This document shows positions 856-20,281 of a stretch of DNA of 40,000 nt, piece after piece. A program made the translations under genes and the position numbers. Source of the DNA: an uncultured Ignavibacteria bacterium (GTDB lineage Bacteria; Bacteroidota; Ignavibacteria; Ignavibacteriales; Ignavibacteriaceae); contig CAWCVZ010000004.1 in NCBI GenBank assembly GCA_963798865.1, forward strand, positions 56,862 through 96,861. Reading direction: 5' to 3'. The notes under the pieces were generated by a model. It made no database searches. It had not been told where the DNA came from and worked only from the letters and a program-made list of their open reading frames with translations. The first letter of the stretch is position 1. Each line of letters opens with the position of its first letter.

Positions 856-1812
<957 letters not shown>

Positions 1813-2086
1813 TTTTATGTTTCCTATTTTTTTATCATTTCAAAGTCCAAATAGTGGCTAACGGCTTGTTACTAAGGCGTAGCCCAGAACAAGAATGCCG
1901 AATAGAGCCACAACTGCCGAAACCCTGCCTGCCGGCAGGCAGGTACCAAAGCTAACAATTACTAAAAACCCAACGGATAATTCGCAGTCGGCTTGTCCCA
2001 AGGACTCCTATGGAGAGGCACGTGATATTTCCAATAAGTAAAAAGTTATTTTTGAATAGCATCAACAACTTATCAGGAGGTATCAA

Positions 2087-3230: not shown

Positions 3231-3392
3231 AGGTTTGGTTTGCCATAGTGCAGCCTCATAGATATTACGGCATTAATTGTTGTTTAAAAGTAGAAGACAG
3301 TATATCAAAGAACTATTTTTTTTACAAAACTTTTTTTGCCAGGGATTTTTATTTTCTTTTTCTACCTATTGACCTTTTACTTATTAAAGAGG

Positions 3393-4022: not shown

Positions 4023-4043
4023 AACTCTTCTACCTTTTTGACA

Positions 4044-4286
4044 GTATAACGACGTTGCAACTAACCCGCCGCCCAGAATAAGAACGACAAGCTATTTACA
4101 ACTGCCGATGATTTAGCAAACTGTGCTTAACTTTCATCATAAGCGCAGTTTGCAACTATATTGTTTAATAGAACTACCTTTAAAAAGTTAGCCGAAACAG
4201 CCTGCCCCTATGGGGGAACGACTAATTCTAAAATTTATAAATTGCCGAATGCGAACTTGCGGTCGGCGTTAAGTTGCCTGTTATAT
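4044..4286 (-). other. attC site
   Basis: gtataac at 4044-4050 and gttatat at 4280-4286. Imperfectly complementary arms, with the conserved inner hairpin gcaaactgtgcttaac...taagcgcagtttgc. Confidence 0.8.
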
Positions 4287-4291
4287 TTGCT

Positions 4292-4786
4292 TTAATCGTA
4301 ACCACCATTTCTTGGCGGTAGAACTTTATATTCTGGCTTTGATTCTATGATTTGTCTTATATAGTTAGATAATTTTTCTATTGATTTATAATTTTCCGTT
4401 TGATATTCTGGTGTTATATATTTCCAGGTAATTTCTTTCTCCTGATCATTTATTTTTATTCTTAAATATTGTTGAAAGTTAGGACTTATTTCTACTGGAC
4501 TATTATCTATGATTGTATCTGGTAATGAATAAAAGTTTGTTTCGTTAATTTTATTTTCGATTTTTTGTTGTTCTTCTTCTGTTAACCAAAACTTCACTTT
4601 TTTCAAACCATCTAAAACTAAATCCTTAATTAAATAATTATCATAGGTATTCAGTTCATCTTTATAGTTGTATTTAAATAATATTTTAACAAACTGTTCA
4701 TTTGGCTCTACACTGTTTTCATTGCACGAAATAAAAATTAAAGAAATCAATAATGTTAATGTGATTTTTAAATATTTCATAAACAC
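4292..4786 (-). CDS. Lipoprotein, unknown function (cassette-borne)
   Basis: 164-aa ORF with a signal peptide and lipobox-like LIFISC. It fills the cassette exactly between the attC boxes. Confidence 0.7.
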   Translation of the reverse strand: MFMKYLKITLTLLISLIFISCNENSVEPNEQFVKILFKYNYKDELNTYDNYLIKDLVLDGLKKVKFWLTEEEQQKIENKINETNFYSLPDTIIDNSPVEISPNFQQYLRIKINDQEKEITWKYITPEYQTENYKSIEKLSNYIRQIIESKPEYKVLPPRNGGYD

Positions 4787-4811
4787 CTCAAAAAAAATAT
4801 TATTTTTGCAA

Positions 4812-5040
4812 ATATAACGGCGTTGTGCCTAAGCCGCTGCCCATAACAGCAATGCTTAACTTTTACACAATGCCGATGATTAAGCCGAAGGTGCGTAACT
4901 TTCAATTTCTTCACGCACCGAAGGCAAGTTAATTATTTATTTGAACTACCTTGAACAAGAAACTTAGACGAAGCAAACCAAGCCGAGAATCTGGAAAAAC
5001 TGGTGGATGCGAAGCAGTCGGCTTGAGGCACTTGTTATAC
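4812..5040 (-). other. attC site
   Basis: atataac at 4812-4818 and gttatac at 5034-5040. Arms aacggcgttgtgcctaagccgctgccc and gcagtcggcttgaggcacttgtt. Confidence 0.8.
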
Positions 5041-5046
5041 CTATTT

Positions 5047-5325
5047 TTATGAATGAGCCTTTTGTAATAACTCTGAAACATATTCTGAACGGGAAGATGA
5101 ATCTAATTTTTTGTTATTCTTCTTACACCAGTTTTTAAAATTAGTTGGAGAAATATTAACTTTTTTAACAGTGAATCCTTGATCTTCAAGTTTAGATTTA
5201 GATAAAGAAGCTTCGACTAACCAATCATCATAGTTATCTTCTATTTGATCTTCAGAAATATTTTTCCATTCCTCCCAATCATTTTCATTAAACCAGGCAA
5301 TTCCAATTATTGATTCTTTATCCAT
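5047..5325 (-). CDS. Small acidic cytoplasmic protein, unknown function (cassette-borne)
   Basis: 92-aa ORF that exactly fills a 317-bp cassette. I recognise no motif. Confidence 0.6.
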   Translation of the reverse strand: MDKESIIGIAWFNENDWEEWKNISEDQIEDNYDDWLVEASLSKSKLEDQGFTVKKVNISPTNFKNWCKKNNKKLDSSSRSEYVSELLQKAHS

Positions 5326-5357
5326 TTTATCATCTCATATTTTATGAAACTTAATAG

Positions 5358-5601
5358 GTATAACGACGTTGTGCCTAAGCCGCTGCCCAGAATAAGACTG
5401 CCAAAAGAAACCACAACTGCCAAAGATTAAGCAAACTGTTTTAAATTTCCTCGTACAAACAGTTTGCAAGTTTATTAAATTAGTAATGACTACCTTGAAC
5501 AAGTTAGCCGAAACAGCCTGCCCCTATGGGGGAACGGCTAACTTTAAAATCCCAAAATTGCCGGGAGCGAAATCACTGTCGCCTTGAGCCACTTGTTATA
5601 C
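5358..5601 (-). other. attC site
   Basis: gtataac at 5358-5364 and gttatac at 5595-5601. It carries the same inner modules as 4044..4286, including gcctgcccctatgggggaacg. Confidence 0.8.
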
Positions 5602-5604
5602 TGG

Positions 5605-6396
5605 TTACTTACTATGGACTAATAAATTTCTAAATTCTTTTAGTGTTAATATTCTTATCATTTCAAATTTAGAAATGTCTTCTTGCAATTTAATCGGCGA
5701 AGGAACAACTATAACTGCATTATTAACATTTTCAAATTTAGCCATCTCATTCAGATTAAAAACAATATCTTGAATCATTTTGATAGGCATTGGGCGCAAC
5801 CAATTCTTAACTTCAACTATAAACCTATTATCATACTTTTCAATGAGGAAGTCATAGTATATATCGTGACTTTTTACAATTCTGTAACCAGATTTATATA
5901 TGATATTTTCAACTTCTTTTTCGAACTCTACATATTTATGAATAGATGATTGTTTACTGCTTTCGGTTGAAGATTCTTTATACTTTCTAAAAAAATATAT
6001 TAAAAGTGTCGCAGCAAAACTGGCTCCTAAAGTTCCTAAAATAAGAGCAATAAGTTCATTGGTTGATTCATTAGTTTTAATTTTTTGTAGTTCTGGAAAT
6101 AAAGGAATAACAGTTCCAATTACAGAAGCTATTAAAGCGAGAAGAACAGGCAATAATGTTTTTGTTATGAATCTTTGACGAGTAGATGGTAATGATTCAA
6201 TTTCAGATTCTTTAATAGGTAAGCTTTCTAAATGTATAATTGTCCCATTTATTCTTTGTAATATTTGTTCTCTTTGTTCTTGTGTTATAAAATCTGTTTC
6301 AACAATTCTTGTGTAAATTGTGTTCATTATTTGAGATTCAGATAATAAATCAATTGGCATCAAGACTTTATAATACACGTGTCCTTGCTCTCTCAA
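5605..6396 (-). CDS. Two-TM membrane protein with a C-terminal PD-(D/E)xK (Mrr-cat / restriction-endonuclease-like) domain
   Basis: Two hydrophobic helices (LLPVLLALIASVIGTVIPLF and LIALILGTLGASFAATLLIYFF). They are followed by FEKEVENIIYKSGYRIV...YDFLIEKYDNRFIVEVKNW, a D...E-x-K core as in Mrr-like nucleases. The listed start is TTG; the true start may be the internal ATG (MPIDLL). Confidence 0.55.
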   Translation of the reverse strand: MREQGHVYYKVLMPIDLLSESQIMNTIYTRIVETDFITQEQREQILQRINGTIIHLESLPIKESEIESLPSTRQRFITKTLLPVLLALIASVIGTVIPLFPELQKIKTNESTNELIALILGTLGASFAATLLIYFFRKYKESSTESSKQSSIHKYVEFEKEVENIIYKSGYRIVKSHDIYYDFLIEKYDNRFIVEVKNWLRPMPIKMIQDIVFNLNEMAKFENVNNAVIVVPSPIKLQEDISKFEMIRILTLKEFRNLLVHSK

Positions 6397-6638
6397 TGAT
6401 TAATGCTCTTGAATATCTCCACTATTTTTAGGAGTAAATTCTTCCGTTAAAACGATTCTTTCTAACTAGAAATGTTGTTCAATGTTTATGCTGATTAGCG
6501 AGTCTTGATTCTTTCTTTTATTAGTGCACCTATTAGTTTGGCGATTTAAGTTATTTTTCGAGAGAAGATGTATAACTGATATGAATAACACTAAAAAATG
6601 GTTTAGTAAGATGGATAATGTTTGCCATTTCTTACCAT

Positions 6639-6870
6639 TGTATAGGCGGGGCTTTGCTTGCTCTCGCCGCAGCCCGGAAACAAGAATGTCGCTTAAAAAA
6701 CAATGCCTAAGATTTAGCAAACCGTGTGTAATTTTTCTCGTACACACGGTTTGCAAGTTTATTAATTAGAACGAGTACCTTGAACAAGTTAGCCGAAACG
6801 GAACGACCAACATTAAAATTTATAAAATGCCGAATGCGAAAATGCTGACGGCTTGAGCAGCTTGTTATAT
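6639..6870 (-). other. attC site with a degenerate crossover-side box
   Basis: The right box gttatat (6864-6870) and the inner modules are intact. The left end reads tgtataggcgg instead of gtataacggcg, so the AAC (GTT on the cassette strand) triplet is lost. An extra ggctttgcttgctct is present. Confidence 0.6.
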
Positions 6871-6949
6871 AGCGACTACTATTATCTTAAATTCACTCCA
6901 AGTTTTAGTTAACCGAATAAGTTCCCTTGAACAGACGTTGTATTTTTAA

Positions 6950-7896
6950 TTAAGTTTTTTTTTGCATTATTTTCGTTACCATTTCGTAAATATTGTCTTG
7001 TTTTATGATAGTAATGTCTTTCTGTTCTTTGATAAGGTCTCTGTTCAAGTCAAACATTGGATTGTTTTCATCAAGATCGTTCGTCATACATTACTGCTCG
7101 AGGAATATTATATTCTTTTGCAAAGCCCATCGCTAAACGTGCCCCACTGTCAAATTTTTGTCCGAAACATTTTTCCTACGTTCGGCGGAATTTTGAGCAT
7201 AACTTGCAGCTAAAACAATCGTATCACAAAACAACGCTTGTAAGCGGTCACGTTCTTTATAACGACTGCTTAATTCCATTTTGCTTTTAAAATCATTGCC
7301 ATATTCTGTGACAAGCAAGTCCGCCTTCTTCAAAAATTTGAAATGCTAGTCCTTTATTTCTTGCAGGTAAAATATTATTTAATGGGCTTGGTAAAATTGC
7401 AACTGTTTTGCCATTAGAATCTAATGCTTGTTGATGAGAAATACTATCACAACCAAATGCCAATCCGCTAAATATTGTTGCACCATTTTTAACAAACTGA
7501 GCAACAATTTTTCTTTCTCTTTCTTCTATGTCGCCTTCTGGATTTAAAAGTCCAATTACAGAAATGTTTTTATTTTCAATACTCAATAAGTCAATATTAC
7601 CTTTGTAATAAAGAAAAACAGGTCTGTTCACTTTCTTTTACGTTACCGCGATGTTGTGGAAAATTTGGGTCACCAAAAGCAACAAAACCATCACAATATT
7701 CTTCAAATTTTTGTATAAGTTTTGTTTCAAACTCTTTTCTGAGATATTCAAATTCAGATACAGTAGTTTTTTTTGATATTTTATTATTTAGCAAAGAAAC
7801 AATAATGTCAACACTTTCATTGCCTTTCAAATTCTTTACAACCCAAGCATTACCTATACCCTTATAGGATTTAGCAGTTAGAATGTTTATAGGCAT
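6950..7896 (-). pseudogene. DprA/Smf-like (SLOG Rossmann) protein, ShosA-like, broken by several frameshifts
   Basis: The ORF fragments 7597..7896, 7293..7631 and 7133..7333, plus two further frames that I translated by hand, join up. Together they read ...ISVIGLLNPEGD...GATIFSGLAFGCDSISHQQALDSNGKTVAILPSPLNNILPARNKGLAFQIFEEGGL / LVTEYGN...RYKERDRLQALF.DTIVLAAS / DSGGARLAMGFAKEYNIPRAV. This matches the DprA core pattern GLAxGxDxxxHxxAL...T.AVL....YPxxN. The last readable stop is at 6950-6952. Confidence 0.6.
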
Positions 7897-7976
7897 TTTC
7901 CGAGTATTTCATTTCTTTATATCTTTTCTTATTGTAAATGTATTAAAACGGTAAATCATCCGTATTGGTAGTTAAG

Positions 7977-8640
7977 TTACTCTAAGAGAGTAACACTTCT
8001 CGATTTTGTCTTACCAACTGCATAAAATATAACGTGATTTTGCTTCATTGTCATAACAACGCTTGAATAGCATCCTCGTCAATATTTACTGTCTTTGTAT
8101 ATAAATCATCTATCAACAGAATATCTTTATTTCTAACATCTATTGGAAATACGTACAAGTATCTTTAGTAATTCCAGGATAAGGTGATACTCTCCACTAC
8201 CTCCGCCAGAAATGCCTCTATCTTAAGTGAGTTGTTTTTGTATCAGTATGTCTTATAATATAAATTCGTACTCTACTTAAAAAAGCCATTTAAGCCGATT
8301 CGCTACATTAATAACAGTCGCTCTTGAATAATAACTGATTAGCATTATATTTTACTTTCGCTCTAGGTACAACGCAAACCGTAAGATGTAGTCTTTTTAA
8401 CTCGGTTAGCTTTAGAATTTGTGGCAAGTCTTCTAATAGTATTTTAGATAATTGTTGAGAAGTGTTTTGCAAGACACTATTAGGGGTATAAGGTGTAATA
8501 TCATTTTTAAGAGTACAAATAATATTTTCGATCGTTCCTTGCACTTTCCATTGTCCACCACCGCCAGAATAATCGGAATGATAAAAACCTTGTATATCTT
8601 GGCTCAAAAAGTTGTTTCCCTCGATTGTAAAACTGTGCAT
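7977..8640 (-). pseudogene. Phosphoribosyltransferase-type protein, ShosT-like, heavily frame-disrupted
   Basis: ORF 8308..8640 (..LTVCVVPRAK..) is followed by hand-translated fragments in three frames: IIRHTDTKTTHL, GISGGGSGE, PYPGITKDTC, NKDILLIDDLYTKTVNIDEDAIQALL and VIFYAVGKTKS. The hydrophobic-DD-x-x-T pattern is the PRTase PRPP-loop signature. At least five frame breaks occur within about 660 nt. Confidence 0.5.
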
Positions 8641-8643
8641 AAA

Positions 8644-9213
8644 CTATATCCTTATAATGTTTTGAGTTGGGTATCCCGGCTTTTATTGCGTCTCCGATTT
8701 CTGTTTTTTCGTTTTCAAAAGCAATAACTAACTCAGTTGAAATACCTAATTCTGAAATTGCATTTTCAAATTTATTAAGTGTAAGAACCATTTAAGCTAA
8801 GTTTTCTAAAGAAAAATTTGTTCGAATCGGTTTGTTAACCCGTGAAATTCTAATGTTTCTTGTGCTCTCATTTGTCGGCAATTAGTGACCAAAATAGAGC
8901 TGTTTGTTTTTGAATACTTTAAAAGAATGTTAGCAACGGGCTTTATCAGTTTTGTGGCGTGTAGGAAGTCTTTATAGCTATTCTTCTTTTTCTTGGATTA
9001 TTCTTTCGTATTCTGTTTCATTTAAATTTGGAACAGCGTTTTTTAGAATAACGCGGTTAAAACGTTTGCTCAGGATTGAATGTTATATCGTGTTCTGATT
9101 TTGTCACAGATATGAATTGCTTTTTTGTAAGAGAGAAAGTTGGCATAGTTTGTGTCAACCAATGTTCCGTCAATATCAAAGAATAAAACCGTATCAGTCT
9201 GTAATCTTAAGCT
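8644..9213 (-). pseudogene. HAD-superfamily hydrolase, frame-disrupted, no clear start codon
   Basis: Hand translation of the minus strand gives DTVLFFDIDGTLVDTNYANF (HAD motif I, DxDGT) near 9140-9200. It also gives a C-terminal ...ISELGISTELVIAFENEKTEIGDAIKAGIP (HAD motif IV region) at 8660-8770. Stops and frameshifts lie in between. Confidence 0.5.
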
Positions 9214-9312
9214 CTGAATTTAGTGTTTCTTCAATATGTTTGTTTCATTTTACCATTACTTAATTTTCATAGGATTACTTTCATCTCAATAATAATTATT
9301 TGAGAACTAAGC

Positions 9313-9537
9313 TTATAACGGCGTTGCGCCTAACCCGCCGCCCATAACAAGGAAGCCGAGTAAAACACAACTGATAAATATTTGACAAACTGCACTTAAC
9401 TTGCTTCAGCAAGTGCAGTTGTAAGTTAATTAATTAAGAACGAACACTTAGAACAAAATGCCTAACAAAAACAAAACGCCAAAAATTATAAATCCGCCGA
9501 ACTAAAACGGCGGTCGGTGTTGAGGCGCAGGTTATAC
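9313..9537 (-). other. attC site
   Basis: ttataac at 9313-9319 and gttatac at 9531-9537. Over most of its length it is a close sequence relative of the site at 11465..11688. Confidence 0.8.
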
Positions 9538-9549
9538 ATCATTTTTAGA

Positions 9550-10236
9550 TTATTGTATCTTTTCAATATCATTTAGTCTTGCGATAAATTTTATATCAGA
9601 GATATTCCATTTCGCTTTAAGTTCATAATAAATATCTTCATTTAAATATTTCATCAAGATAATCAGAGTCCCATATCCAGACCTCCTTACTTACACAAAT
9701 AACCAATTCTAAAAGGCTTCGATGAACTAAACTAATCTGATATTCGACCTTACTCTTTGAGATTTTTTGCGGGTTGTTTATTCTGCCTTTCATATCAATT
9801 TTATTCTTAAAACGCTTAAGACCAACATACAATGAGTTTTGTTTTTTTTGTTCAAGAATTCCATCCAACATTTCTTTGAGATATTTGTTTCTGGGCTTGA
9901 ATTCAGAATCAAAAATTCTGACAAAGTGAGATTGTTTTTGCAAATGATTATAAATTATTTTTTTAAAATATACCGTTCTTCAATATTGTTACCAAATATT
10001 TTTATCATTTCTGGGTCTTTGTAAGAATTGTATCTACCATCCACTCTCGAGTGAAATAAGAAATCAGCTAAAAGAAATATTTTCCCTAATTCCTCTAATG
10101 AAATAATAGATAAATAATTTGCCGAGGAATATGAATCGTTATTAAAAAGTAATATTGAATCTAAATGTAGCTTAGTGGCATTCTGGAATGATAGTAATGC
10201 CATTTTATCAATTTTATTAAGATTTACTGCATCCAT
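9550..10236 (-). CDS. AbiV-like abortive-infection protein (two compensating frame changes)
   Basis: The N-terminal segment ...NATKLHLDSILLFNNDSYSSANYLSIISLEELGKIFLL matches the AbiV pattern (x-A-x-x-L-x-I-x-A-x-EE-x-GK). The middle segment (9638..9943) reads IYNHLQKQSHF...NSLYVGL. The tail YLNEDIYYELKAKWNISDIKFIARLNDIEKIQ returns to the first frame and stops 13 nt from the attC box. The total span is 687 nt, a multiple of three. The first break lies in an A-run at about 9950. Confidence 0.6.
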
Positions 10237-10255
10237 AATTTTAGTTACTTTAGCT

Positions 10256-10444
10256 GTATAACAACGTTGCGGCTAAGGCGCAGCCCAGAACAACAATGCC
10301 GAATTAATTAATAAATTTTATAATTAAAAAAATACATTCATAACACAACAACGTTGAACAAGAAACTAAACACGGAAAGACAAACCCAAAAACCCAAAAA
10401 ATGCCAAGAGCGAAATCGCTGTCGCCTTGAGCCGCGGGTTAGGC
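10256..10444 (-). other. attC site (short variant lacking the inner hairpin)
   Basis: gtataac at 10256-10262 and gttaggc at 10438-10444. Arms aacaacgttgcggctaaggcgcagccc and gctgtcgccttgagccgcgggtt. Confidence 0.75.
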
Positions 10445-10458
10445 TACAAATGCTTTTA

Positions 10459-11108
10459 TTAAAAAGCATACCCAATACCAGCTAAAATCTGTACTGTAAA
10501 GTATTCTTGGTGATAATCATCTAAATTTCTAATTCCTTTATCAAACCAAATTGAATGAGTATATCTAAATTTTAACTTAGAAGTAAAGAAGAAATATTTT
10601 TTACTTCTATTTATTGGTACATAAAGTTCTGCATAAACCATTTATTCCTAATCCGGAAGATGCTAAGTTTATCATAAAGTACAGTATCTACTTCAAGTAT
10701 TCTATTTACAATTATAAATGATGGACCAATTCCATAAGAAAGATATTTATTAATTTTAGCTGTATAATTCAAATCAAAATTATGGTTAATTAGCTTTATA
10801 TTACCCGAATATGGTGGCGGTGCTGGAAATGGACTGGGTTCATATCTAATAAATTCTATAATATTTTTCTTTGTAATTTGTTGGTAACTATATTCAAATA
10901 ATATATTGAAACCAAATAGACTATCTCTTTGATAACTAAAATCATACAAAACAAAAGATTGAAATTTTTTATCTCCCATTATTTTTGTTGAATTTTCAGA
11001 ATTACTCAAATAATAACCATAGCCAACATTTAGACTAATTCTATTTTGTGAATTGATTATCGAAGTACTAAATAAAAAAACTATTGAGAATATAAATATT
11101 CTTACCAT
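10459..11108 (-). CDS. Outer-membrane beta-barrel-like protein (at least one frameshift near 10625-10650)
   Basis: Signal peptide, alternating aromatic/polar strands and the C-terminal ...ILAGIGYAF with a terminal Phe. It is split between ORFs 10611..11108 and 10459..10641. Confidence 0.5.
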
Positions 11109-11424
11109 TACTTCACCAATAATATATTCTTAGTGGTTTTTGAATAATACGTGCTATTTACACCTTTTAATTCAACAGTATAAAAGTAAACTCCTTCCGG
11201 TAAGTTAGAAGCATCAAAATTAATTTCATAAGCTCCGGCATCCTGTTCTTTATCAACTGGAGTTAAAATTGATCTGTATTATAACTATTTTCAATTGTTA
11301 ATTTTACCATTGATATTTCTGGTACTGAATACCTTATAATAGTGGAAGGGTCATCAAGTATAGATGATTTACAGCCAAATAATATTATGACTAATACTAA
11401 TGTTGTTAAAGATAATAATTTCAT
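11108..11424 (-). CDS. Small lipoprotein consisting of a signal/lipobox plus a T9SS-type C-terminal sorting domain (one frameshift near 11275-11285)
   Basis: Hand translation gives MKLLSLTTLVLVIILFGCKSS...VKLTIENSYN. After a one-nt shift it continues ...DKEQDAGAYEINFDASNLPEGVYFYTVELKGVNSTYYSKTTKNILLVK, the Por-secretion-tail pattern. Its TAA overlaps the ATG of the downstream OMP gene (TAATG). Confidence 0.5.
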
Positions 11425-11464
11425 AAATCCTTCTCTTATATTGTCTAATATCTTTTACCTTGTA

Positions 11465-11688
11465 GCCTAACGACGTTGCGCCTAACCCGCCGCCCATAAC
11501 AAGGAAGCTGAGTAAAGCACAAATGCCAAATGATTAACAAACTGCACTTAACTTGCATCAGCAAGTGCAGTTTGTAAGTTAATTAATTAGAACGAACACC
11601 TTGAACAAAATTTATAACTAAAACATAATATCAAAAATCACAAATCGGCCGAATCAAAATGGCGGTCGGGTTGAGGTGCTGGTTAGGC
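11465..11688 (-). other. attC site
   Basis: gcctaac at 11465-11471 and gttaggc at 11682-11688. Inner hairpin caaactgcacttaacttgc...gcaagtgcagtttg. Confidence 0.8.
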
Positions 11689-11704
11689 AATAAAAAACTT
11701 ATAA

Positions 11705-12811
11705 CTACTTTACTAAAATGGATGATACATATCCAACAATACCCGAATTCAGACTGTACAAATTTGAACCATCCCATTTAAAGATTCCATTTACAGTTTT
11801 ACCATTAACTAATTTGAAATTTCCACCTACGTATAAATAATTATCTGATGAACATAATGCATAGGGAGAGCCATCAAATGAAAATAAATTATATTTCCAA
11901 TTCGTCCCATCCCATACTGCATAATAAGGTAGATCGTTTTGTGAATTCGAATCACTTTCTCCAGCAAAATGGATTTCATTTTTAAATTTAAAGGAGGAAT
12001 ATGTTCTGTTAGATAGAGTTGAGTTTTGAATTAACTGCCAAGCACTTGTATTCCATTTTGCAATATTGACAACTGAAATAGAATCACACTTATTAAAATT
12101 ACCCGAAGCATAAAGCTCATTATTAAAGGTAGTAATATTATGTACCCAGCCACCACCTGAGATATCTAAAGATATTCCAGTACTAACGGAATCCCAATTA
12201 TTGCCGTTCCATCTGGCTATTTTATTAGCACTAAAATTTCCTAAAGTATTTTTTGTGAACCACCCACCTACATAAAGTTCATTATTAAATGTTGCCAAAG
12301 CATACACCTCATCAGAAAGACCTTCTCCAACATTGGACCAAGTTGTTCCATTCCATTTAGCAATATTATCTGTTTGAATTCCACCAGCATTCGAAAACCA
12401 ACCTCCAACATAAAGTTCTCCTTCAAAGACCATTAAACTAGTAACTCTTCCATTAATACCGTTTCCAACTGATGACCAATTATTCCCATCCCATCGTGCA
12501 ATATTTTGTACTGGTATACCTCCAGCTGAGTCTATGAAACCACCAACGTATAATTCGCCGTTATAATAACACAAACTTTCAATATTAACATTTGAACCAG
12601 AAACTCCTAAACCAAGAGCATTCCAATTTTCACCATCCCAAAAAGCAAGATTCTTGATTGATGAATTTCCTGTAATTGTAAAGCTTCCACCAATAAAAAT
12701 TGAATCTGCAGGTAAATCATTATCTCCATCTGGTATATCGGTTGGGGTTTCGGACTTACATCCATATAAAACCATCATTAAAAAGAAAAATAATGCCATT
12801 AAATTTTTCAT
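11705..12811 (-). CDS. Beta-propeller repeat lipoprotein (cassette-borne)
   Basis: 368-aa ORF with the lipobox LYGC. It has about seven repeats of the form IA(R/K)W(D/N)G.NW..(V/L)G.G....V..L..F.(N/G)ELYVGG.F. Confidence 0.75.
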   Translation of the reverse strand: MKNLMALFFFLMMVLYGCKSETPTDIPDGDNDLPADSIFIGGSFTITGNSSIKNLAFWDGENWNALGLGVSGSNVNIESLCYYNGELYVGGFIDSAGGIPVQNIARWDGNNWSSVGNGINGRVTSLMVFEGELYVGGWFSNAGGIQTDNIAKWNGTTWSNVGEGLSDEVYALATFNNELYVGGWFTKNTLGNFSANKIARWNGNNWDSVSTGISLDISGGGWVHNITTFNNELYASGNFNKCDSISVVNIAKWNTSAWQLIQNSTLSNRTYSSFKFKNEIHFAGESDSNSQNDLPYYAVWDGTNWKYNLFSFDGSPYALCSSDNYLYVGGNFKLVNGKTVNGIFKWDGSNLYSLNSGIVGYVSSILVK

Positions 12812-12821
12812 ACTATTTATT

Positions 12822-13011
12822 GCCTAACGGCGTTGCAACTAAGCCGCAGCCCAGAATAAGACTGCCGAATAGAAGTACAATGCCGATGATTTTAAAAAAT
12901 TTTGTTTAGCAAGAACACCTTGAACAAGTTATTAGAACGAAGGCACAAAACTATATAATTTACAAATTAGCCGACGGAAATATCGCTGTCGGGTTGAGTT
13001 GCTGGTTAGGC
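12822..13011 (-). other. attC site (short variant)
   Basis: gcctaac at 12822-12828 and gttaggc at 13005-13011. It lies 10 nt upstream of the propeller-gene ATG and 12 nt after the stop at 13023. Confidence 0.8.
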
Positions 13012-13022
13012 AATTTTTTATT

Positions 13023-13439
13023 TTAGTGACTCGTCCTAAAACTATCTTTACTTATTACTTCTCCATTGCTAATATCAATGAAATAAAATGAACCCTTGTT
13101 ATCATCAATATAACCAGTTACAACCCAAACTATTTTTACGCCATCTTTATCTCTTGCAGTTGATAATTCAGCAATTATTTTCTCCTTTTTGCCAAGAGTG
13201 ATTCCATTTGATTTAGCAATTGAAATAGCTTCAAGAGAATCAATGTCAAAAGTACAATTTGAAGAATTTGAAATACAATTTGGTATCCATTCAGGGAAAT
13301 GATCTTCTATTATATTTCCTAAACTATCAAGGTACCAAATCCTTGTTATTCGTTGCCAAGGTTTTTCTGGAATAACGAAATCATAATAAATATTATAATG
13401 TAAGAAAGCTCGGAAATATTGATAATTTGTTTTATTCAT
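13023..13439 (-). CDS. Hypothetical protein with a PepSY-like C-terminal region (first cassette, distal ORF)
   Basis: 138-aa ORF. The C-terminus SLEAISIAKSNGI...VKIVWVVTGY...FYFIDISNGEVIS resembles the PepSY fold pattern. It overlaps the upstream ORF by 8 nt (ATGAATAA), which could be coupling or a frameshifted single gene. Confidence 0.5.
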   Translation of the reverse strand: MNKTNYQYFRAFLHYNIYYDFVIPEKPWQRITRIWYLDSLGNIIEDHFPEWIPNCISNSSNCTFDIDSLEAISIAKSNGITLGKKEKIIAELSTARDKDGVKIVWVVTGYIDDNKGSFYFIDISNGEVISKDSFRTSH

Positions 13440-13677
13440 ATTGTAAGTAATCTGGATTGCCAGGGTATAGTCCAGATTTTAGAGAGTCAAATAAAAAATA
13501 TTCTTTATAAATTTTTTCCCCAGTTTTCGATATAAAAACAGAATCTATTAATATTTTAATTGACAGAGGAACAGTAGCTATTCGAATGTCATCACTCTCT
13601 TTACGATTTATTGTAATAGTTTGTGCTTGATTGTTCAATGCTAAAATCAATATTATTAGAATTAGATAATTGTACAT
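13432..13677 (-). CDS. Small secreted protein (first cassette, attI-proximal ORF)
   Basis: 81-aa ORF with an N-terminal signal peptide (YLILIILILALNNQAQT). Its ATG lies 11 nt downstream of the attI GTTAGGC box. Confidence 0.55.
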   Translation of the reverse strand: MYNYLILIILILALNNQAQTITINRKESDDIRIATVPLSIKILIDSVFISKTGEKIYKEYFLFDSLKSGLYPGNPDYLQYE

Positions 13678-13687
13678 TTTTTTAATT

Positions 13688-13845
13688 GCCTAACTAATAC
13701 TTAACCGGAATCGCTTATCACTTATTTTCTGCAATCCCGTTTTTGCTTATCCTAATATCATTAAAATATTATGCTTTTCCAACTAATTGTAACTTTTAAT
13801 TTTATATTAGGATAATCCTTATCTCAATATTATATTTACACCATT
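13688..13845 (-). promoter_or_regulatory. attI region and divergent intI/cassette promoter region
   Basis: gcctaac at 13688-13694 (GTTAGGC on the cassette strand) marks the junction with the first cassette. The remaining 150 bp of AT-rich intergenic DNA up to the intI GTG include the palindrome aggataatcct at 13809-13819. Promoter elements were not mapped. Confidence 0.5.
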
Positions 13846-14814
13846 GTGGAAATTAAGACTAAACCAAAATTACTAACCCAGGTTAGTATTTACCTTCGCA
13901 CCCTGCATTACAGCAAGCGTACCGAGGAATCCTATATAAACTGGATTAAAAGATTTATCATCTTTCACAAAAAAACACATCCCCAAAATCTTGGTAAGGA
14001 TGACATCCGTAAATACCTCAATCACCTTGCTGTCGATCGCAATGTTTCCGCCTCTACACAAAACCAGGCTCTTCAGGCAATACTCTTTCTTTATAAAAAT
14101 ATAATTCATAAAGATGTCGGCTGGATAGATGACATTAAACGACCGCAAAAACCAAAACACATTCCTGTTGTATTTACCAAAACAGAAGCTCATACAGTAA
14201 TTCAGTTAATGGATGGACTACCGAAATTAATTGCAAGCCTTTTATACGGTTCCGGTCTCCGGCTTTCCGAAGCACTGCGCCTCCGTGTTAAAGATATTGA
14301 TTTTGAATATCATCTCATTATTGTAAAGGATGGCAAAGGTGAAAAAGACAGAACAACACTCCTTCCAAAATCCCTGGTTCCCCATCTTCTTGAACAGATT
14401 GAAAAAAGAAGAATACTTCATAACCATGATCTTAAAACCGGGCTTGGTGAAACCTGGCTTCCGTATGCCCTCTCACTAAAATATCCTAATGCCTCTAAAG
14501 AATTCGGCTGGCAGTATCTCTTCCCTGCTGAAAGAATTATTCCCGATCCCGCAAACAAAAAGATCCGTCATCACTTTCACGAATCTACCGTTACCAAGGC
14601 AATCAAATCGGCAATAAAAAAAGCGAACATAGAAAAACCTACAGCCAGTGCACATACTTTCCGCCATAGCTTTGCAACCCATCTCCTACAGAATAATTAC
14701 GATATAAGAACTGTACAGGAACTGCTCGGACACAAAGACGTTCGCGTTACAATGATCTACACACATATAATAAAAAACCTTGGTATGGGAGTTAAAAGCC
14801 CGCTGGATTTCTGA
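13846..14814 (+). CDS. intI: Integron integrase (IntI-type tyrosine recombinase), GTG start
   Basis: 322-aa ORF with the tyrosine-recombinase residues (GLRLSEALRLRVKDID, KGEKDR, HTFRHSFATHLL, LGHKDVRVTMIYTH). It also has the IntI-specific insertion LPYALSLKYPNASKEFGWQYLFPA. It is divergent from the attC array. Confidence 0.95.
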   Translation: MEIKTKPKLLTQVSIYLRTLHYSKRTEESYINWIKRFIIFHKKTHPQNLGKDDIRKYLNHLAVDRNVSASTQNQALQAILFLYKNIIHKDVGWIDDIKRPQKPKHIPVVFTKTEAHTVIQLMDGLPKLIASLLYGSGLRLSEALRLRVKDIDFEYHLIIVKDGKGEKDRTTLLPKSLVPHLLEQIEKRRILHNHDLKTGLGETWLPYALSLKYPNASKEFGWQYLFPAERIIPDPANKKIRHHFHESTVTKAIKSAIKKANIEKPTASAHTFRHSFATHLLQNNYDIRTVQELLGHKDVRVTMIYTHIIKNLGMGVKSPLDF

Positions 14815-15179
14815 TTGCTCAAACACAGCTTCGCCGCATAAGCCACAAATAGAAAATAAATATCCCTTTAAAGCCATTTAAACTTTAATATACACCCGTA
14901 TAAAGATTTAAGAAATTAATATCGGATAATTGATAAAACCCAATGTCGGAATGAAAACCCATAGGATCCCCGCATCATAATAATATTTTATTTTTTACTC
15001 AGTTCCTTAAAAAACTTAATAATAATTTAAAATACCTTATCGTAAGAAGCAATAAAAAAATAAATCTGATTTTTTGATATAAGTAAATAATTGATAAATA
15101 TTAAATATCCCTGTACCCCGCACATATCATATTGTTATAGTAGTTGAAGGATAATCCTAACACAGAATAAAATAAAAGT

Positions 15180-15568
15180 CATTCTGATTTACCTGCCCTG
15201 CGGCAGGACGAAGCGAAGAATCTAAAACAACAAAATTAACCAGGCTCCTTTACTGAACTCCAATAAATTTCTTCAAAAAATTTATTCTGCACATTAAAAG
15301 AATTACGCAAGAAATTAAGATAAGCGGAGTGTTAAAAGATAAATTCTGTTTGAGTCCCGTTTTACGGGACGAGTTAATTTATCTTAACAAAGCTTATCGA
15401 AAATTTCCGGTAATTCTTTTAAAGTGCATGTTCTTTCCTGCCTGCCGGTTTACATACCAAAGGTATGCAGGCAGGTGATACTTTTCTTGCGCCAGGAAAA
15501 GTATGAATTGATTGTTTTGGCAATTTATTTTAAGCCTTGCCTGTAAACCTTGTCTGACATTACACTAT
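15180..15568. repeat. Repeat unit U1 (389 bp)
   Basis: Canonical unit, with an extra GC-rich hairpin (cctgccctgcggcagg) inserted in the boundary motif cattctga...gaagaatc. Confidence 0.85.
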
Positions 15569-15936
15569 CATTCTGAGCAATGCAAAGAATCTAAAACAAA
15601 AAAATTAACCCGCTCCTCAACTGAACTCCAATAAATTTCTTCAAAAAATCTATTCTGCACATTAAAAGAATTACGCAAGAAATTAAGATAAGCGGAGTGT
15701 TAAAAGATAAATTCTGTTTGAGTCCCGTTTTACGGGACGAGTTAATTTATCTTAACAAAGCTTATCGAAAATTTCCAGTAATTCTTTTAAAGTGCATGTT
15801 CTTTCCTGCCTGCCGGTTTACATACCAAAGGTATGCAGGCAGGTGATACTTTTCTTGCGCCAGGAAAAGTATGAATTGATTGTTTTGGCAATTTATTTTA
15901 AGCTTTGCCTGTAAACCTTGTCTGACATTACACCAT
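15569..15936. repeat. Repeat unit U2 (368 bp, canonical)
   Basis: By eye it is near-identical to U5, and to U1, U6 and U7 outside their indels. Confidence 0.9.
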
Positions 15937-16284
15937 CATTCTGAGCAATGCGAAGAATCTAAAACAAAATCTATTGTGGGGTTTACCCAAGGCAATCCCC
16001 TTTTCAACTCCTGTACAAAGCAGCTACAACTCCGTAAAACAACTCCGTAACAAAGCGTAACAAAGCCGAGTGTTAAAAGATAAAGCCGCTACAAAGCCCG
16101 TCTTAGAAATATTAAGAGTCAAAACAATGAGTCCACATTTCCTATGACTTATTGACAGAAATAATTCTGTTTCCGCTCTGCTTCCGGTTTGTTTCCGTAT
16201 TGTTCTCCGCTAAGCAATTCATGGCAATTGATTCTTTTCACAAATTATTTTAAAATTTCCTGTAAAACTGTTTACATACACCGT
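15937..16284. repeat. Repeat unit U3 (348 bp, strongly diverged)
   Basis: It shares the boundary motif and only scattered blocks (gagtgttaaaagataaa, aattctgttt, ccggttt, aattgattcttttcacaaattatttta, cctgtaaaac). All three hairpins are lost. Confidence 0.7.
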
Positions 16285-16644
16285 CTTTCTGAACCGTGCT
16301 AAGAATCTGGAACAGAGATTAAAATTACAGACAGCAATTGCTTCAAAAAATCTATTCGCACATTAAAAGAATTACAGAAAGAAATTGAGATAAGTGGAGA
16401 GTTAAAAGATAAATTCTGTTTGAGTCCCATTTTACGAGGACGAGTTAATTTATCCTAACAAAGCTTATCGAAAATTTCCGGTAATTCTTTTAAAGTGCAT
16501 AGTCTCTTCCTGCCTGCCGGTTTACATACCAGAAGGTATGCAGCGCAGATGATACTTTTCTATGCGCCAGGGAAAAGTATGAATTGATTGCTTTAGTAAA
16601 TTTATTAATGCCTTGCCTGTCAACCTTGTCTGACATTACACCAT
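16285..16644. repeat. Repeat unit U4 (360 bp, moderately diverged)
   Basis: Colinear with the canonical unit. The H1 inner stem and the H2 outer stem carry non-compensated changes (gtccca...cgaggac; cagcgcag). H3 is retained. Confidence 0.85.
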
Positions 16645-17013
16645 CATTCTGAGCAAAGCGAAAAATCTAAAACAAAAAAATTAACCCGCTCCTCAACTGA
16701 ACTCCAATAAATTTCTTCAAAAAATCTATTCTGCACATTAAAAGAATTACGCAAGAAATTAAGATAAGCGGAGTGTTAAAAGATAAATTCTGTTTGAGTC
16801 CCGTTTTACGGGACGAGTTAATTTATCTTAACAAAGCTTATCGAAAATTTCCGGTAATTCTTTTCAAAGTGCATGTTCTTTCCTGCCTGCCGGTTTACAT
16901 ACCAAAGGTATGCAGGCAGGTGATACTTTTCTTGCGTCAGGAAAAGTATGAATTGATTGTTTTGGCAATTTATTTTAAGCTTTGCCTGTAAACCTTGTCT
17001 GACATTACACTAT
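16645..17013. repeat. Repeat unit U5 (369 bp, canonical)
   Basis: A one-nt insertion (cttttcaaag) is the only reason ORF 16773..16991 opens in this unit. Confidence 0.9.
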
Positions 17014-17344
17014 CATTCTGAGCAAAGCGAAGAATCTAAAACAAAAAAATTAACCCGCTCCTCAACTGAACTCCAATAAATTTCTTCAAAAAATCTATTC
17101 TGCACATTAAAAGAATTACGCAAGAAATTAAGATAAGCGGAGTGTTAAAAGATAAATTCTGTTTGAGTCCCGTTTTACGGGACGAGTTAATTTATCTTAA
17201 CAAAGCTTATCGAAAATTTCCAGTAATTCTTTTAAAGTGCATGTTCTGTTTGATACTTTTCTTGCGCCAAGAAAAGTATGAATTGATTGTTTTAGCAAAT
17301 TTATTTTAAGCTTTGCCTGTAAACCTTGTCTGACATTACACTAT
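17014..17344. repeat. Repeat unit U6 (331 bp, precise loss of hairpin H2)
   Basis: It reads ...gtgcatgttctgtttgatacttttc..., so the cctgcctgcc...caggcagg module is absent while H1 and H3 remain intact. Confidence 0.85.
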
Positions 17345-17696
17345 CATTCTGAGCAATGCAAAGAATCTAAAACAAAAAAATTAACCCGCTCCTCAACTGA
17401 ACTCCAATAAATTTCTTCAAAAAATCTATTCGCACATTAAAAGAATTACAGAAAGAAATTGAGATAAGCGGAGAGTTAAAAGATAAATTCTGTTTGAGTC
17501 CCGTTTTACGGGACGAGTTAATTTATCTTAGCTGAACGAAAGATAATTTTATGGCGAAGCCATTCCTTCGGAAGAATTTCTTTTTTACCTGTCCGCCTAT
17601 GGCGGAAGTGCATGTTCTTTCCTGCCTGCCGGTTTACATACCAAAGGTATGCAGGCAGGAGATACTTTTCTTGCGCCAGGAAAAGTATGAATTGAT
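17345..17696. repeat. Repeat unit U7 (terminal; segment between H1 and H2 replaced)
   Basis: After H1 the usual acaaagcttatcgaaaatttcc... is replaced by gctgaacgaaagataattttatggcgaagccattccttcggaagaat...tccgcctatggcgga. Homology to the other units ends at attgat (17696). Confidence 0.8.
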
Positions 17697-18123
17697 CTTC
17701 TGTAATAACCAGTTTAAAATATCTTTTCAGTCTTAGCCTGCATGCCGATTAGGCAGTTAAAAGCCCTTTGTATTACTTACAGCTTCGCCTTCATCAGTTA
17801 CAACCTGCAAAAAATTAAACTGTTAAAAGAGCTGTGTTTACAACAAACGGGTATTATTCAACCCGGATACTTACAACATGGAAAAATTTATTTATAGTAT
17901 CAGATGTTAAATTAAAATCTGTATCCAAAAGAGATTTCATAATTCCCCTTAATAAATTCTGTTTTAAGAATTAATAAATATCTGAATTTGAATAGCAGGG
18001 GGATTAAAAGATTTGTTTGTTCCCATATAGCCCCTGTAAAACTTATTCCCAACTCATTATTTTGGTTCTAAATAAGCAACAAAAAATTTCCGGATATTTC
18101 ACAACAACAAACAATTGCCAATT

Positions 18124-18186
18124 ACTAATAACCAATGACCAATGACCAATGACCAATGACTAATGACTAATCACTAATGACAAATG
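18124..18186. repeat. Heptanucleotide microsatellite (ACCAATG/ACTAATG, about 9 copies)
   Basis: accaatg x4, then actaatg, actaatc, actaatg and acaaatg, read directly at 18131-18186 with degenerate copies upstream. It lies about 55 nt downstream of the lysC stop. Confidence 0.9.
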
Positions 18187-18240
18187 AATTGACAAGTTGA
18201 ACTATTTATTAATCTAATAACTAAACAACTTTGTAATCAA

Positions 18241-19564
18241 TCAGAACAAGCTCCTGTGCAAAGCCTCAAGAACAGCTTTCTTTTCTTCAGAGGGAATGAG
18301 AATGGAAATGTTGTGCCTGCTTCCGCCGTATGATATCATTCGCAAGTGGAAATTACTAAGCGCTTCAAAAACTTTATGTATGTATCCTTTTTGATCTACA
18401 ATATTATGACCAACCAGACAGACAATCGTCATATTTTTGCTTACTTCAACCTCGCTGAATTTTTTTAATTCTTCAAGAATTCTTTTTAGCTTGGATGAAT
18501 CATCAATTGTAACAGATACTGCAACCTCTGAAGTTGTAATCATATCAATCGGCGTTTCAAAATGTTCAAAAACCTGGAAAACTTTTGTTAAAAAACCATA
18601 CGCCAAAAGCATTCTTCCGGATTTAATTTTTACTGCTGTTATTCCATCTTTCGCAGCAACAGCTTTAATCCCATCGCCTGTAGTTTTATCTGTAATTAAT
18701 GTTCCTTCATCTTCCGGCTTCATAGTATTCTTTAATCTTACAGGAACATTTGCAAGTTTTGCCGGCAGCATAGTTGAAGGATGAAGTATCTTTGCACCAA
18801 AGTACGCTAACTCGGCAGCTTCATCAAAAGAAAGCTGCCCAATCGGGTAAGTGTTTTCAACATATCTCGGGTCGTTATTATGAAAGCCGCTGATGTCTGT
18901 CCATATCTGCACTTCTTCAGAATTAATCGCAGCTCCGATTAATGATGCGGTATAATCACTTCCGCCTCTTTTCAGGTTATCAATTTCTCCATAAAGATTT
19001 TTGCATATATAACCTTGCGTTATAAATATTTTTTTATCAGGATATTGTTCAAGCTCCCTGGTTAAGTTTTCTTTTATATAGTAATTATCAGGTTCTGAGT
19101 TTGAATCTATTCTCATAAAATTTAAAGCAGGGAGGAGGACTGAATCAATTTTTTGTTGTGTAAGATAAAGATGAAAAAGCCCGGATGAGATTAATTCCCC
19201 CTGTGCAAGAATCTTTTTTTCATCGCTGTCTGTAAAGTCATCCTCCTTGAATGACCGTATTAAGTTGAAATGTGATAATATTTAATTCTTTCCCTTTTTC
19301 TTTAAATTCTTTTTTAGAAAAAAGTTCATCAACCATTTTATTGTATTTCTCTTCAAGTAAGCCGGTGACTTCCTTAGCAAGTTCTGTTTTATTTTTAAAG
19401 AGTGCATTGGAAATCTCAACCAGCGAGTTCGTTGTTCCCGCCATTGCCGAAAGAACGATAATTTTGGGTGAATTTATTCCCTTTGGATTTAGAATAAGAT
19501 CAGCAACGGCTTTCATCCGTTCTGCAGAACCAACAGATGTCCCTCCGAATTTTAATACTTGCAT
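18241..19564 (-). CDS. lysC: Aspartate kinase (single frameshift near 19240-19250)
   Basis: N-terminal MQVLKFGGTSVGSAERM... (ORF 19238..19564). The C-terminal catalytic and ACT-domain part is ORF 18241..19116. Hand translation of 19117-19250 in the third frame (EDDFTDSDEKKILAQGELISSGLFHLYL) bridges the two. Confidence 0.9.
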
Positions 19565-19683: not shown

Positions 19684-19739
19684 TTCTTACTTCTTACTTC
19701 TTACTTCTTACTTCTTACTTCTTACTTCTTACTTCTTAC
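19684..19739. repeat. Heptanucleotide microsatellite (TTCTTAC x8, perfect)
   Basis: Eight perfect copies at 19684-19739. The last copy contains the stop codon of the DUF502 gene (19736-19738). The array lies 120 nt upstream of the lysC ATG. Confidence 0.95.
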
Positions 19740-20281
19740 TTACTTTTACTCAATCCACCAGTAACAATAAATGTCATTATCTCTTCCGCACCGGAATTAA
19801 TAAGCTTCACTTCAGTAGAAGGTACAACTATCAGGTTTCCGGCAAAGTTATATGCCTGTGGAATGTAAACTGCAACTTTATCTTTTTCTCCAAGCAGATC
19901 AAGGTTTTCTTCGGTAACAAATCCAAGTATTTCAATATTACTGTCTTTTGATGCCTTGACTAAAACAGGCTTATTAAATTTCTTTTTGTCACCAACAAAA
20001 GCTTCAATAAGATCTTTAATAGAATTATAGATCAATTTTACGAGGGGCAAACGGCTGAAAATTCTTTCTAAAAGATTTGTTAATCCCTTTGTAAAAATAT
20101 TGGAGGCAATAAAACCAACAACAAGTATTAAACCCAGCGTTATAAGAAATCCAATGCCGGGAATTTTGAAATTGAAAAGACCATCTATCTTAATAAAGAT
20201 GAGATAAACAAAGTAAATAGTGGCAGAAGTCGGAAGTATTACAATTAGCCCTTCAAAAAAATATCTTGTAATAGTTTTCAT
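19736..20281 (-). CDS. DUF502-family membrane protein
   Basis: 181-aa ORF with two N-terminal TM helices and a conserved-looking C-terminal domain typical of DUF502. Confidence 0.7.
   Translation of the reverse strand: MKTITRYFFEGLIVILPTSATIYFVYLIFIKIDGLFNFKIPGIGFLITLGLILVVGFIASNIFTKGLTNLLERIFSRLPLVKLIYNSIKDLIEAFVGDKKKFNKPVLVKASKDSNIEILGFVTEENLDLLGEKDKVAVYIPQAYNFAGNLIVVPSTEVKLINSGAEEIMTFIVTGGLSKSK

Follow-up and report, generated by a model that had tools for sequence, protein, structure and literature searches.

A tandem array beside an integron integrase gene in an Ignavibacteria genome is probably a local amplification of a dispersed, structured non-coding repeat family

The array and its setting

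The DNA considered here, called the window, is a stretch of 40,000 nucleotides from an uncultured Ignavibacteria bacterium (contig CAWCVZ010000004.1, positions 56,862 to 96,861, assembly GCA_963798865.1). It contains an integron integrase gene, intI, followed on the same strand by a 2.5-kb block of tandem units. An earlier note, made from the letters alone, had described seven structured, non-coding units with three conserved hairpins (H1, H2 and H3), and had offered three hypotheses: (a) an array of RNA genes, (b) a non-autonomous mobile element that inserted repeatedly next to itself, or (c) folded-DNA substrates or decoys connected to the integrase. The features of the block and its borders are listed below.

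13846..14814, + strand: integron integrase gene intI, outside the repeat family (TIGR02249, 423.6 bits with a cut-off of 265; Pfam Phage_int_SAM_4 and Phage_integrase)
14815..15179, no strand: AT-rich spacer of 365 bp from the intI stop to the array, unique to the source genome (BLAST, nhmmer, attC profile)
15180..17696, + strand: tandem array of seven head-to-tail units (Tandem Repeats Finder and unit alignment)
15180-15568, 15569-15936, 15937-16284 and 16285-16644, + strand: units U1, U2, U3 and U4
16645-17013, 17014-17344 and 17345-17696, + strand: units U5, U6 and U7
15180..15222, + strand: boundary hairpin of U1, CATTCTGA...GAAGAATC, with CCTGCC-CTGC-GGCAGG inserted at 15192-15207 (unit alignment, pattern search)
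15569, 15937, 16285, 16645, 17014 and 17345, + strand: starts of the plain 23-nt boundary hairpins
15288..15505, + strand: core copy of U1, with the long hairpin P1-P6, an inserted H2, and H3 (nhmmer family profile, E=1.6e-45)
15656..15873, + strand: core copy of U2 (nhmmer E=1e-45; minimum free energy fold z=-7.3)
15937..16284, + strand: U3, decayed, with GAGTGTTAAAAGATAAA and the boundary motif retained and the fold lost (~55% identity; z=-0.33)
16356..16581, + strand: core copy of U4, moderately diverged (nhmmer E=1.3e-39)
16732..16950, + strand: core copy of U5 (nhmmer E=3.1e-43)
17100..17280, + strand: core copy of U6, a basal form of 181 nt that lacks H2 (nhmmer E=4.6e-47, the window's top score)
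17430..17690, + strand: core copy of U7, chimeric, with a canonical 5' arm, a 3' arm like that of homologues L015 and L022, and two extra GC hairpins (nhmmer E=2.1e-42)
17691..17696, no strand: right junction, the array ending ~10 nt past H3 of U7; DNA shared with the related contig L011 starts here
17697..18240, no strand: conserved chromosomal flank downstream of lysC, outside the array (98% identity in L011, which lacks the array)

Tandem Repeats Finder places the array at 15213-17247 (period 368, 5.6 copies, score 2560), and a variant with a 331-bp period extends it to 17530. Alignment of the units gives lengths of 389, 368, 348, 360, 369, 331 and 352 bp in the assembled sequence, in agreement with the earlier description, as are the start of the array 365 bp past the intI stop and the boundary hairpin at the head of every unit. 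The unit boundaries read ...ACACTAT followed directly by CATTCTGA, and each unit consists of this small hairpin, a leader of ~65 nt, a core of ~180 nt and a tail of ~56 nt. With a period of 331-389 bp, homology along whole units and no unique spacers, the block is not a CRISPR, as had been said.

Units U1, U2, U5 and U6 are 95.5-98.4% identical in pairwise comparisons. The divergence of two further units also holds: U4 is ~87% identical to the canonical units, and U3 is ~55% identical to all others and is the only unit that escapes the nhmmer family profile, which detects the other six. U7 is ~86-89% identical to the canonical units; its 5' half matches U4, and variants are shared mosaically between units.

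The right end of the array is a true junction with the conserved chromosome, since homology with L011, a 3.35-Mb ENA contig, begins there: window 17691-27349 matches L011 11052-20747 at 98.0% identity over 9.7 kb. The sequence past 17696 was considered as a diverged unit tail and rejected, because it belongs to this conserved flank and is also found in L011. At the left end, the spacer has no BLAST or nhmmer match in any relative and none to the attC profile; two stretches that resemble degenerate attC halves by eye (GCATAAGCCAC and TTGTTATAG) gained no support from that profile.

Fold of the core

Every unit has one copy of the core, which is a bulged hairpin of ~140 nt with six helices, P1 to P6, followed by hairpin H3. 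The common core measures ~181-185 nt in U6 and in the homologues L015, L019, L020b, L022, L027 and L028. P1 pairs GCAC with GTGC (GCTC with GAGC in some members), P2 pairs AAAAGAAUU with AAUUCUUUU, and P3 keeps its pairing through variable sequence. P4 and P5 are formed by CGUUAA-AA-GAUAAAUU and AAUUUAUC-UUAGCG. Past P5 there is an invariant internal loop with CUGUUUGA on one side and GAG on the other; the invariant internal-loop sequences of the core read GUUAA-AA-GAUAAAUU-CUGUUUGA ... GAGUUAAUUUAUCUUAGC. The tip hairpin, P6, is GC-rich and varies in length from 16 to ~43 nt. The linker AUGUUCUUUUG joins the long hairpin to H3, which is ACUUUUCUU-loop-AAGAAAAGU.

Two of the three hairpins named earlier thus need redrawing. 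H1 is real, but comprises only P4-P6, the inner part of the ~140-nt GCAC...GTGC hairpin. H3 is indeed conserved, but its stem has 12 bp, including one U·G, instead of 9 bp. Compared with shuffled sequences, the fold of a canonical unit has z=-7.3 and -7.1 on the two strands as RNA and z=-8.1 as DNA, and the fold of U3 is no better than shuffles (z=-0.33).

The remaining hairpin, H2, belongs to a family of inserted GC-rich mini-hairpins of the type CCTGCC...GGCAGG, some of which contain a nested second hairpin. A pattern search for the type gave 11 matches, with 0 expected. The H2 copies are as follows.

15437..15475, 15805-15843, 16509-16549, 16882-16920 and 17621-17659, + strand: H2, inserted GC-rich mini-hairpin of the CCTGCC...GGCAGG type (pattern search)

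H2 is present in canonical units, as claimed, but it is missing from most family members; it is therefore regarded as an insertion, and U6, which lacks exactly H2, resembles the basal form. Mini-hairpins also occur in the 5' strand between P2 and P3 (L020a, L021, L025 and L029), ahead of the P1 3' strand (L020a and U7), at the H2 site (window units, L021, L026 and L029) and inside the H3 loop (L029). Outside the family, attC sites (window 1924-1943; L011) have them, as does intergenic DNA rich in repeats. In all, sites were recorded at 1924-1943, 15192-15207, the H2 sites and 17737-17748 of the window, and in L020 (eight sites), L011, L021, L025, L028 and L029. They behave like small mobile palindromes that have entered attC sites, the loops of structured repeats and intergenic DNA.

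Variation between units is modular, as had been proposed. U1 has a 20-nt GC-hairpin insertion inside its boundary motif. In U7 a segment has been replaced, but it has also expanded, and what had been called a swap is the L015/L022-type 3' arm together with two extra GC hairpins. U7 is in this sense a chimera; its core runs up to the junction with the chromosome, and in its predicted fold the P2-P3 pairing is lost. Set against the rest of the family, H2 and the extra hairpins of U1 and U7 are secondary insertions, at loops where the structure tolerates them.

Copies in other genomes

The first homologue was found in L012, a JGI contig that encodes an IntI 84% identical to that of the window. 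It lies ~175 bp past the intI stop and reads GCACATTAAAA...GCGTTAAAAGATAAATTCTGTTTGAG, with the contig end falling inside the element. Further copies were retrieved with a 20-mer, GTTAAAAGATAAATTCTGTT, chosen after the L012 homologue, and then with an nhmmer family profile built from the matches. A stricter pattern, GAGNGTTAAAAGATAAAN12CCCNTNTTA, matched all seven units but gave no hit in collections of genomes, metagenomes and viruses. At least four other metagenome-assembled genomes (MAGs) of Ignavibacteria or Melioribacteraceae have homologues, as do three metagenome contigs.

MAG MFD02416.bin.1.322 (Ignavibacteria): L020 and L028
MAG MFD01721.bin.1.80 (Melioribacteraceae): four copies on three contigs, L021, L025, L026 and L029
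MAG MFD05442.bin.1.421: L022
MAG MFD05684.bin.1.87: L027
Metagenome contigs: L014, L015 and L019

Whether copies are dispersed or always accompany intI is answered for the loci recovered by these searches: they are dispersed and mostly lie away from it, and a single homologue, that of L012, is situated 3' of an intI. Two of the genomes, MFD01721.bin.1.80 and MFD02416.bin.1.322, hold multiple dispersed copies each, and one contig of the latter has at least seven. According to the family profile, six copies lie within 3.6 kb in L020, and L014 has an inverted pair. The neighbouring genes are mutually unrelated; they include those for enoyl-CoA hydratase (ECH), PmbA/TldD, purA, ubiE, a polysaccharide deacetylase, UDP-GlcNAc 2-epimerase and an MNT/HEPN pair.

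Tandem arrangement is also found elsewhere. L019 has an independent tandem repeat with a period of 342, in which the order is the same as in the window: boundary hairpin GTCATTCTGAGCGCAGCGAAGAATC, leader CCTCAAATAAATT..., element, H3 and spacer. L028 has 1.9 copies of a 239-bp repeat of an internally deleted derivative. The paralogues of the Melioribacteraceae MAG share ~350 bp, leader and tail included, and their homology fades at differing points; in L021 the leader segment recurs in inverted form downstream of the element. No target-site duplications were recognised in the paralogue alignment or the homologue loci, nor were consistent terminal inverted repeats or a transposase adjoining any copy found in these loci, and no Y1 (HUH) transposase gene was seen among the neighbouring genes scanned.

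BLASTN of one unit against plasmids and phages gave no match, and no plasmid, phage or viral contig in the collections searched has the element. Two viral matches to GAGTTNATTTATCTTAGNG lie inside coding sequence and were discarded as chance. Contigs from Clostridia, Halomicronema and Treponema, along with L018, match only the 20-mer and were not accepted as family members.

The proposed comparison with Rfam was made and no Rfam 15 family reaches its gathering score in the window; positions 14800-18300 give only SNORA50 noise (E=0.48), and five homologue-bearing loci give no match at E <= 1. The families covered include 6S RNA, self-cleaving ribozymes, STAXI, HEARO/omega RNA and sRNA-Xcc1. The boundary motif of U1 (CUGA-hairpin-GAAG) looks hammerhead-like, and no ribozyme model matched it. 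6S RNA was rejected for want of an Rfam 6S match, for the many copies per genome and for an apical part that is too short. No description of this repeat family came up in full-text literature searches.

The repeat-rich intergenic stretch of L020 at 2400-6700 also has other small hairpin families, for example ACAGTTCACTTTAGTGAACTG and GTCATTTCGA...GAAATGA...GAGAAATCT, which are interleaved with the six element copies and the MNT/HEPN gene pair.

Conservation of the structure

Covariation of the helices, which the earlier note had suggested checking, lies well above slid and shuffled controls. RNAalifold finds compensatory double changes in 20 of 46 predicted pairs; the alignment holds 15 sequences, several of them paralogues, so that these and the following counts include inherited changes. 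Over the full structure of 65 pairs, 92.3% of cells are standard-paired, compared with 38-50% when partners are slid by 1-3 columns. Changes on both sides affect 26 of the 65 pairs (6-10 in the slid controls), the covariation score is 0.334 (0.05-0.07 when slid), and the observed values were not reached in any of 500 column shuffles. Compensation can be seen even between paralogues of a single genome, where H3 is CUCCUUUUC.../...GAAAAGGAG in L026 and CUACUUUUC.../...GAAAAGUAG in its siblings, and the diverged L020 subfamily retains H3 as GUUCUUUUGU-GUCAAG-ACAAAAGAAC.

Selection was assessed on one orthologous pair, L022 and L027, in which the element lies upstream of the same ECH gene. The two copies differ at 3 of 179 positions (98.3% identity), and two of the three differences make up one compensatory pair, U-A to C-G. 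As controls, identity is 83.2% at third codon positions of the ECH gene and 45% in the intergenic DNA just upstream. These comparisons indicate that the structure is conserved through compensatory substitutions and that the element is under purifying selection relative to its neutral neighbours.

The changes also point to one strand. In members outside the window, G·U pairs on the + strand number 32 and A·C combinations, which correspond to G·U on the - strand, number 11. The U·G in P4 is retained in 11 of 15 sequences.

The claim that the units are non-coding holds. Open reading frames (ORFs) of at least 20 aa differ between units, and it takes a 1-nt insertion in U5 to create the 72-aa ORF at 16773-16991. 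The tip hairpins that lie between conserved nucleotide blocks in homologues measure 16, 17, 19, 20 and ~43 nt; because the tip lengths are not multiples of three, the blocks fall in different frames and coding is ruled out. A type I toxin-antitoxin system of the LDR/Sib kind with a conserved small hydrophobic ORF was rejected since ORFs vary between units, and the ATG of GTGCATG is missing in L015 and L021.

Relation to the integron

That Ignavibacteriae have integrons is established (PMC9024848). On the left side of intI, the window has a canonical cassette array of small - strand ORFs separated by long attC sites, which extends leftwards from attI and hence away from the tandem array.

13684..13700, - strand: attI crossover region, with GTTAGGC at 13690-13696; homology to L001 and L011 starts exactly here
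572-824, 1857-2035, 4045-4290, 4812-5042 and 5358-5603: attC sites
6640-6873, 9313-9540, 10256-10447, 11464-11693 and 12822-13014: attC sites

The attC sites, of 190-250 nt, have the form GCCTAAC/TATAAC ... GTTAGGC/GTTATAC and recur over 570-13014; those listed are examples. A profile of ten of the window sites (nhmmer) has no match at E <= 10 in 13700-18300. The polarity of the element is opposite to that of attC, the 5' arm bearing GTTAA and the 3' arm TTAAC/TTAGC, and the unit boundaries lack G|TTRRRY. Since the units lie on the wrong side of intI and have no match to the attC profile, they are neither cassettes nor relatives of attC.

The distribution of the family leads to a similar view. 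When L012-L030 were searched with IntI (tblastn) and the attC profile, only L012/L017 and L013 matched, and ten other full-length homologue loci have neither intI nor attC in the DNA examined. Conversely, related platforms manage without the element: no homologue lies 3' of intI in L001/L002, L003/L004, L031 or L032/L033 (IntI 81-83% identical), that is, in four other lineages represented by six contigs. L011 shares two cassette stretches with the window at 99.8-99.9% identity, whereas nucleotide identity falls to 79% in intI, and 81 unrelated bp separate its intI stop from the common flank, in place of the 365-bp spacer and 2.5-kb array.

The comparison with L011 shows a further contrast. Window 13668-17690 corresponds to L011 9809-11051, with a platform 79% identical between cassettes at 99.8-99.9% and chromosome at 98%. 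A divergent platform between near-identical flanks indicates that the platform was replaced. The attI-proximal cassette 12829-13689 is missing from L011.

L013 has a lone H3-like hairpin, TTCTTTTCTTACACTAAGAAAAGTA, picked up by the family profile at 1389-1414, directly past the stop of an intI 84% identical to that of the window; the contig ends 6 nt later.

Weighing the explanations

The reading we favour, at a probability of roughly 0.6, is that the block is a local amplification within an Ignavibacteria repeat family that is dispersed, structured, non-coding and outside Rfam, that the family probably acts as RNA, and that the position beside an integron is incidental. The G·U bias, the compensatory changes and the purifying selection indicate that the element would work in folded, single-stranded form, with the sequence of the + strand, on which intI also lies, most likely as RNA and less probably as single-stranded DNA; of the earlier hypotheses, (a) is thus the best supported. 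The core may be a multicopy small RNA, or it may be carried on longer transcripts and recognised through its conserved loops. Near-identical units, mosaic variants and an old U3 embedded mid-array favour unequal homologous recombination over seven insertions, and so the copies would have arisen in place, in what may simply be a permissive stretch between convergent genes.

Several observations weigh against this reading. Both strands of a canonical unit fold equally well, as those of a DNA palindrome would, and the case for RNA rests on the 3:1 G·U bias and on selection, with paralogues contributing to the covariation counts. A sigma-70 scan is at chance level (14 sites, 13.9 expected), and no consistent promoter is seen; Bacteroidetes-type TAnnTTTG-like motifs lie upstream of P1 at varying distances. 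H3 has no U-tract such as a classical intrinsic terminator would have. Moreover, the window and L012 have the element at the same place and in the same orientation 3' of intI, and the L013 hairpin may add to this link with the platform lineage. This suggests that the element was inherited with that lineage.

Hypothesis (b) can be restated as an element that acts at the DNA level, such as a relic of a MITE-like (miniature inverted-repeat transposable element), foldback or ssDNA-hairpin transposon inserting beside itself, with a hairpin that matters as DNA. It is right in that copies are multiple and dispersed in unrelated intergenic contexts. Paralogues within a genome have a unit of ~350 bp in common, leader and tail included, the leader recurs inverted at L021, and the array is present here and missing from L011, with limits that coincide with a unit start and a unit end. 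The unit folds as well in DNA (z=-8.1), and loops of the GCGAAG type are stable in DNA. The target-site duplications, consistent terminal inverted repeats and adjoining transposase of such elements were not found in the loci compared. Nor would transposase ends demand that internal helices stay paired through different sequences. H3, outside the palindrome, is always present and co-varies, G·T 'mismatches' are conserved on one strand, and the orthologous copy evolves ~10x slower than synonymous sites. We therefore consider a purely DNA-level element unlikely. A related and bolder idea is that the ~340-370-bp unit is a self-propagating 'RNA-gene module', mobile or prone to recombination, whose fold would be the substrate of a recombinase or of a reverse-transcription step. 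It would explain dispersal, tandem arrays in several genomes and the place 3' of intI in two platforms, and we regard it as a long shot.

Quite unlikely, too, is a macrosatellite without function, produced by slippage that duplicated a structured segment where intergenic DNA was permissive. The 98%-identical relative lives without the array, U3 is decayed, U7 is chimeric and no gene is associated with the block. Yet the element is clearly constrained in other genomes, so that this account could apply to the amplification and not to the element itself. Hypothesis (c), in which the units are folded-DNA substrates, decoys, regulators of IntI or unusual cassettes without ORFs, has in its favour the position directly 3' of intI on the same strand, the homologue past the intI stop of L012, the hairpin of L013, a loose likeness to attC in its paired boxes, 2-nt extrahelical bulge and variable tip, and the existence of inverted-type integrons with attI 3' of intI (L007-L010). 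Against these stand attI and all cassettes on the opposite side of intI, the silent attC profile, the reversed core-site polarity, the boundaries without a core site, the ten homologue loci free of intI and attC, and the absence of the element from the 98%-identical relative and four platform lineages. Its distribution largely refutes a link to the integron, which we hold to be highly improbable; a role of the array as a substrate or component of the integron is not supported.

Other observations at the locus

Window 1-13700 is a large sedentary integron; its attC sites are of unusual length and contain conserved internal hairpins. Its cassette cargo includes an aldo/keto reductase (856-1812), a DprA-like fragment (7293-7631), an AbiV-type HEPN protein (9955-10236) and a Rax2-like beta-propeller protein (11705-12811), and most other cassette ORFs have no Pfam match. 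An IS110-family transposase ORF (2087-2941; DEDD_Tnp_IS110 and Transposase_20), within window 2023-3396, adjoins an apparently truncated attC site, 1857-2035, and copies 80-84% identical occur in the cassette arrays of L003 and L011. We take the window element to resemble the attC-targeting elements of the IS1111 group.

L007-L010 have a different integron of the inverted type at the same locus 3' of lysC, with intI transcribed towards an attI ~215 bp downstream; L007 and L009 diverge exactly after GTTAG. Heptamer arrays flank lysC, namely CCAATGA x10 (18118-18187) and TTCTTAC x8.3 (19684-19741), and the copy number of the CCAATGA array differs in L011. The lysC gene, for aspartate kinase, falls into two - strand ORFs (18241-19116 and 19238-19564) and is intact in relatives (436-440 aa), and the intI, amt and DUF502 genes of L011 are split as well. 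This suggests long-read indel errors rather than true pseudogenes.

Significance and comparison with known systems

For integron biology the interest of the block is low; a tempting false lead is removed, and the integron gains no new component. For RNA discovery it is moderate. The family would be a new structured element in a poorly studied phylum, ~180 nt long, multicopy, outside Rfam and with strong covariation. It evolves more slowly than synonymous sites, tolerates nested GC mini-hairpins at defined loops and forms tandem arrays in independent genomes. If it acts as RNA, it is a candidate for a new class of regulatory or protein-binding RNA in Ignavibacteria, with the seven-copy array as a natural dosage variant and the array-less L011 as an isogenic-like comparator.

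The ERIC repeats of enterobacteria and the BOX repeats of pneumococcus are imperfect intergenic palindromes of 100-200 nt, multicopy and conserved across related species, which are enlarged by insertions at fixed internal sites, sometimes have tandem modules and are thought to act at the transcript level. The present family shares these features of intergenic multicopy palindromes, but has no sequence similarity to either. It differs by an obligatory second hairpin, H3, by invariant internal-loop sequences and far stronger covariation, by purifying selection at an orthologous locus, and by the arraying of whole units of ~340-370 bp up to seven times.

Tandem sibling small RNA genes are known from NsiR1 in Nostoc and LhrC1-5 in Listeria, whose RNAs of 60-110 nt have clear promoters, U-tract terminators and demonstrated transcription. 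Here, too, repeats of a few hundred bp are arranged head to tail, each with one (putative) structured non-coding RNA gene, and near-identical copies are accompanied by occasional decayed ones. In contrast, the putative RNA is ~180 nt long and neither a promoter nor a terminator can be defined.

The likeness to attC sites and cassettes lies in a folded single strand, a structure partly more conserved than its sequence, extrahelical bases, a variable tip and arrays near intI. The differences are the wrong side of intI, the lack of RYYYAAC/GTTRRRY boxes in the right polarity and of a match to the resident attC profile, and the fact that most family members lie far from any integron. Finally, a comparison with REP/BIME elements concerns the mini-hairpins only. 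In both cases, palindromes of 16-40 nt, rich in GC against an AT-rich genome, are scattered between genes and sometimes nested or clustered; unlike REP/BIME, the mini-hairpins come with no RAYT transposase seen here, and they are inserted within attC sites and within a structured repeat family.

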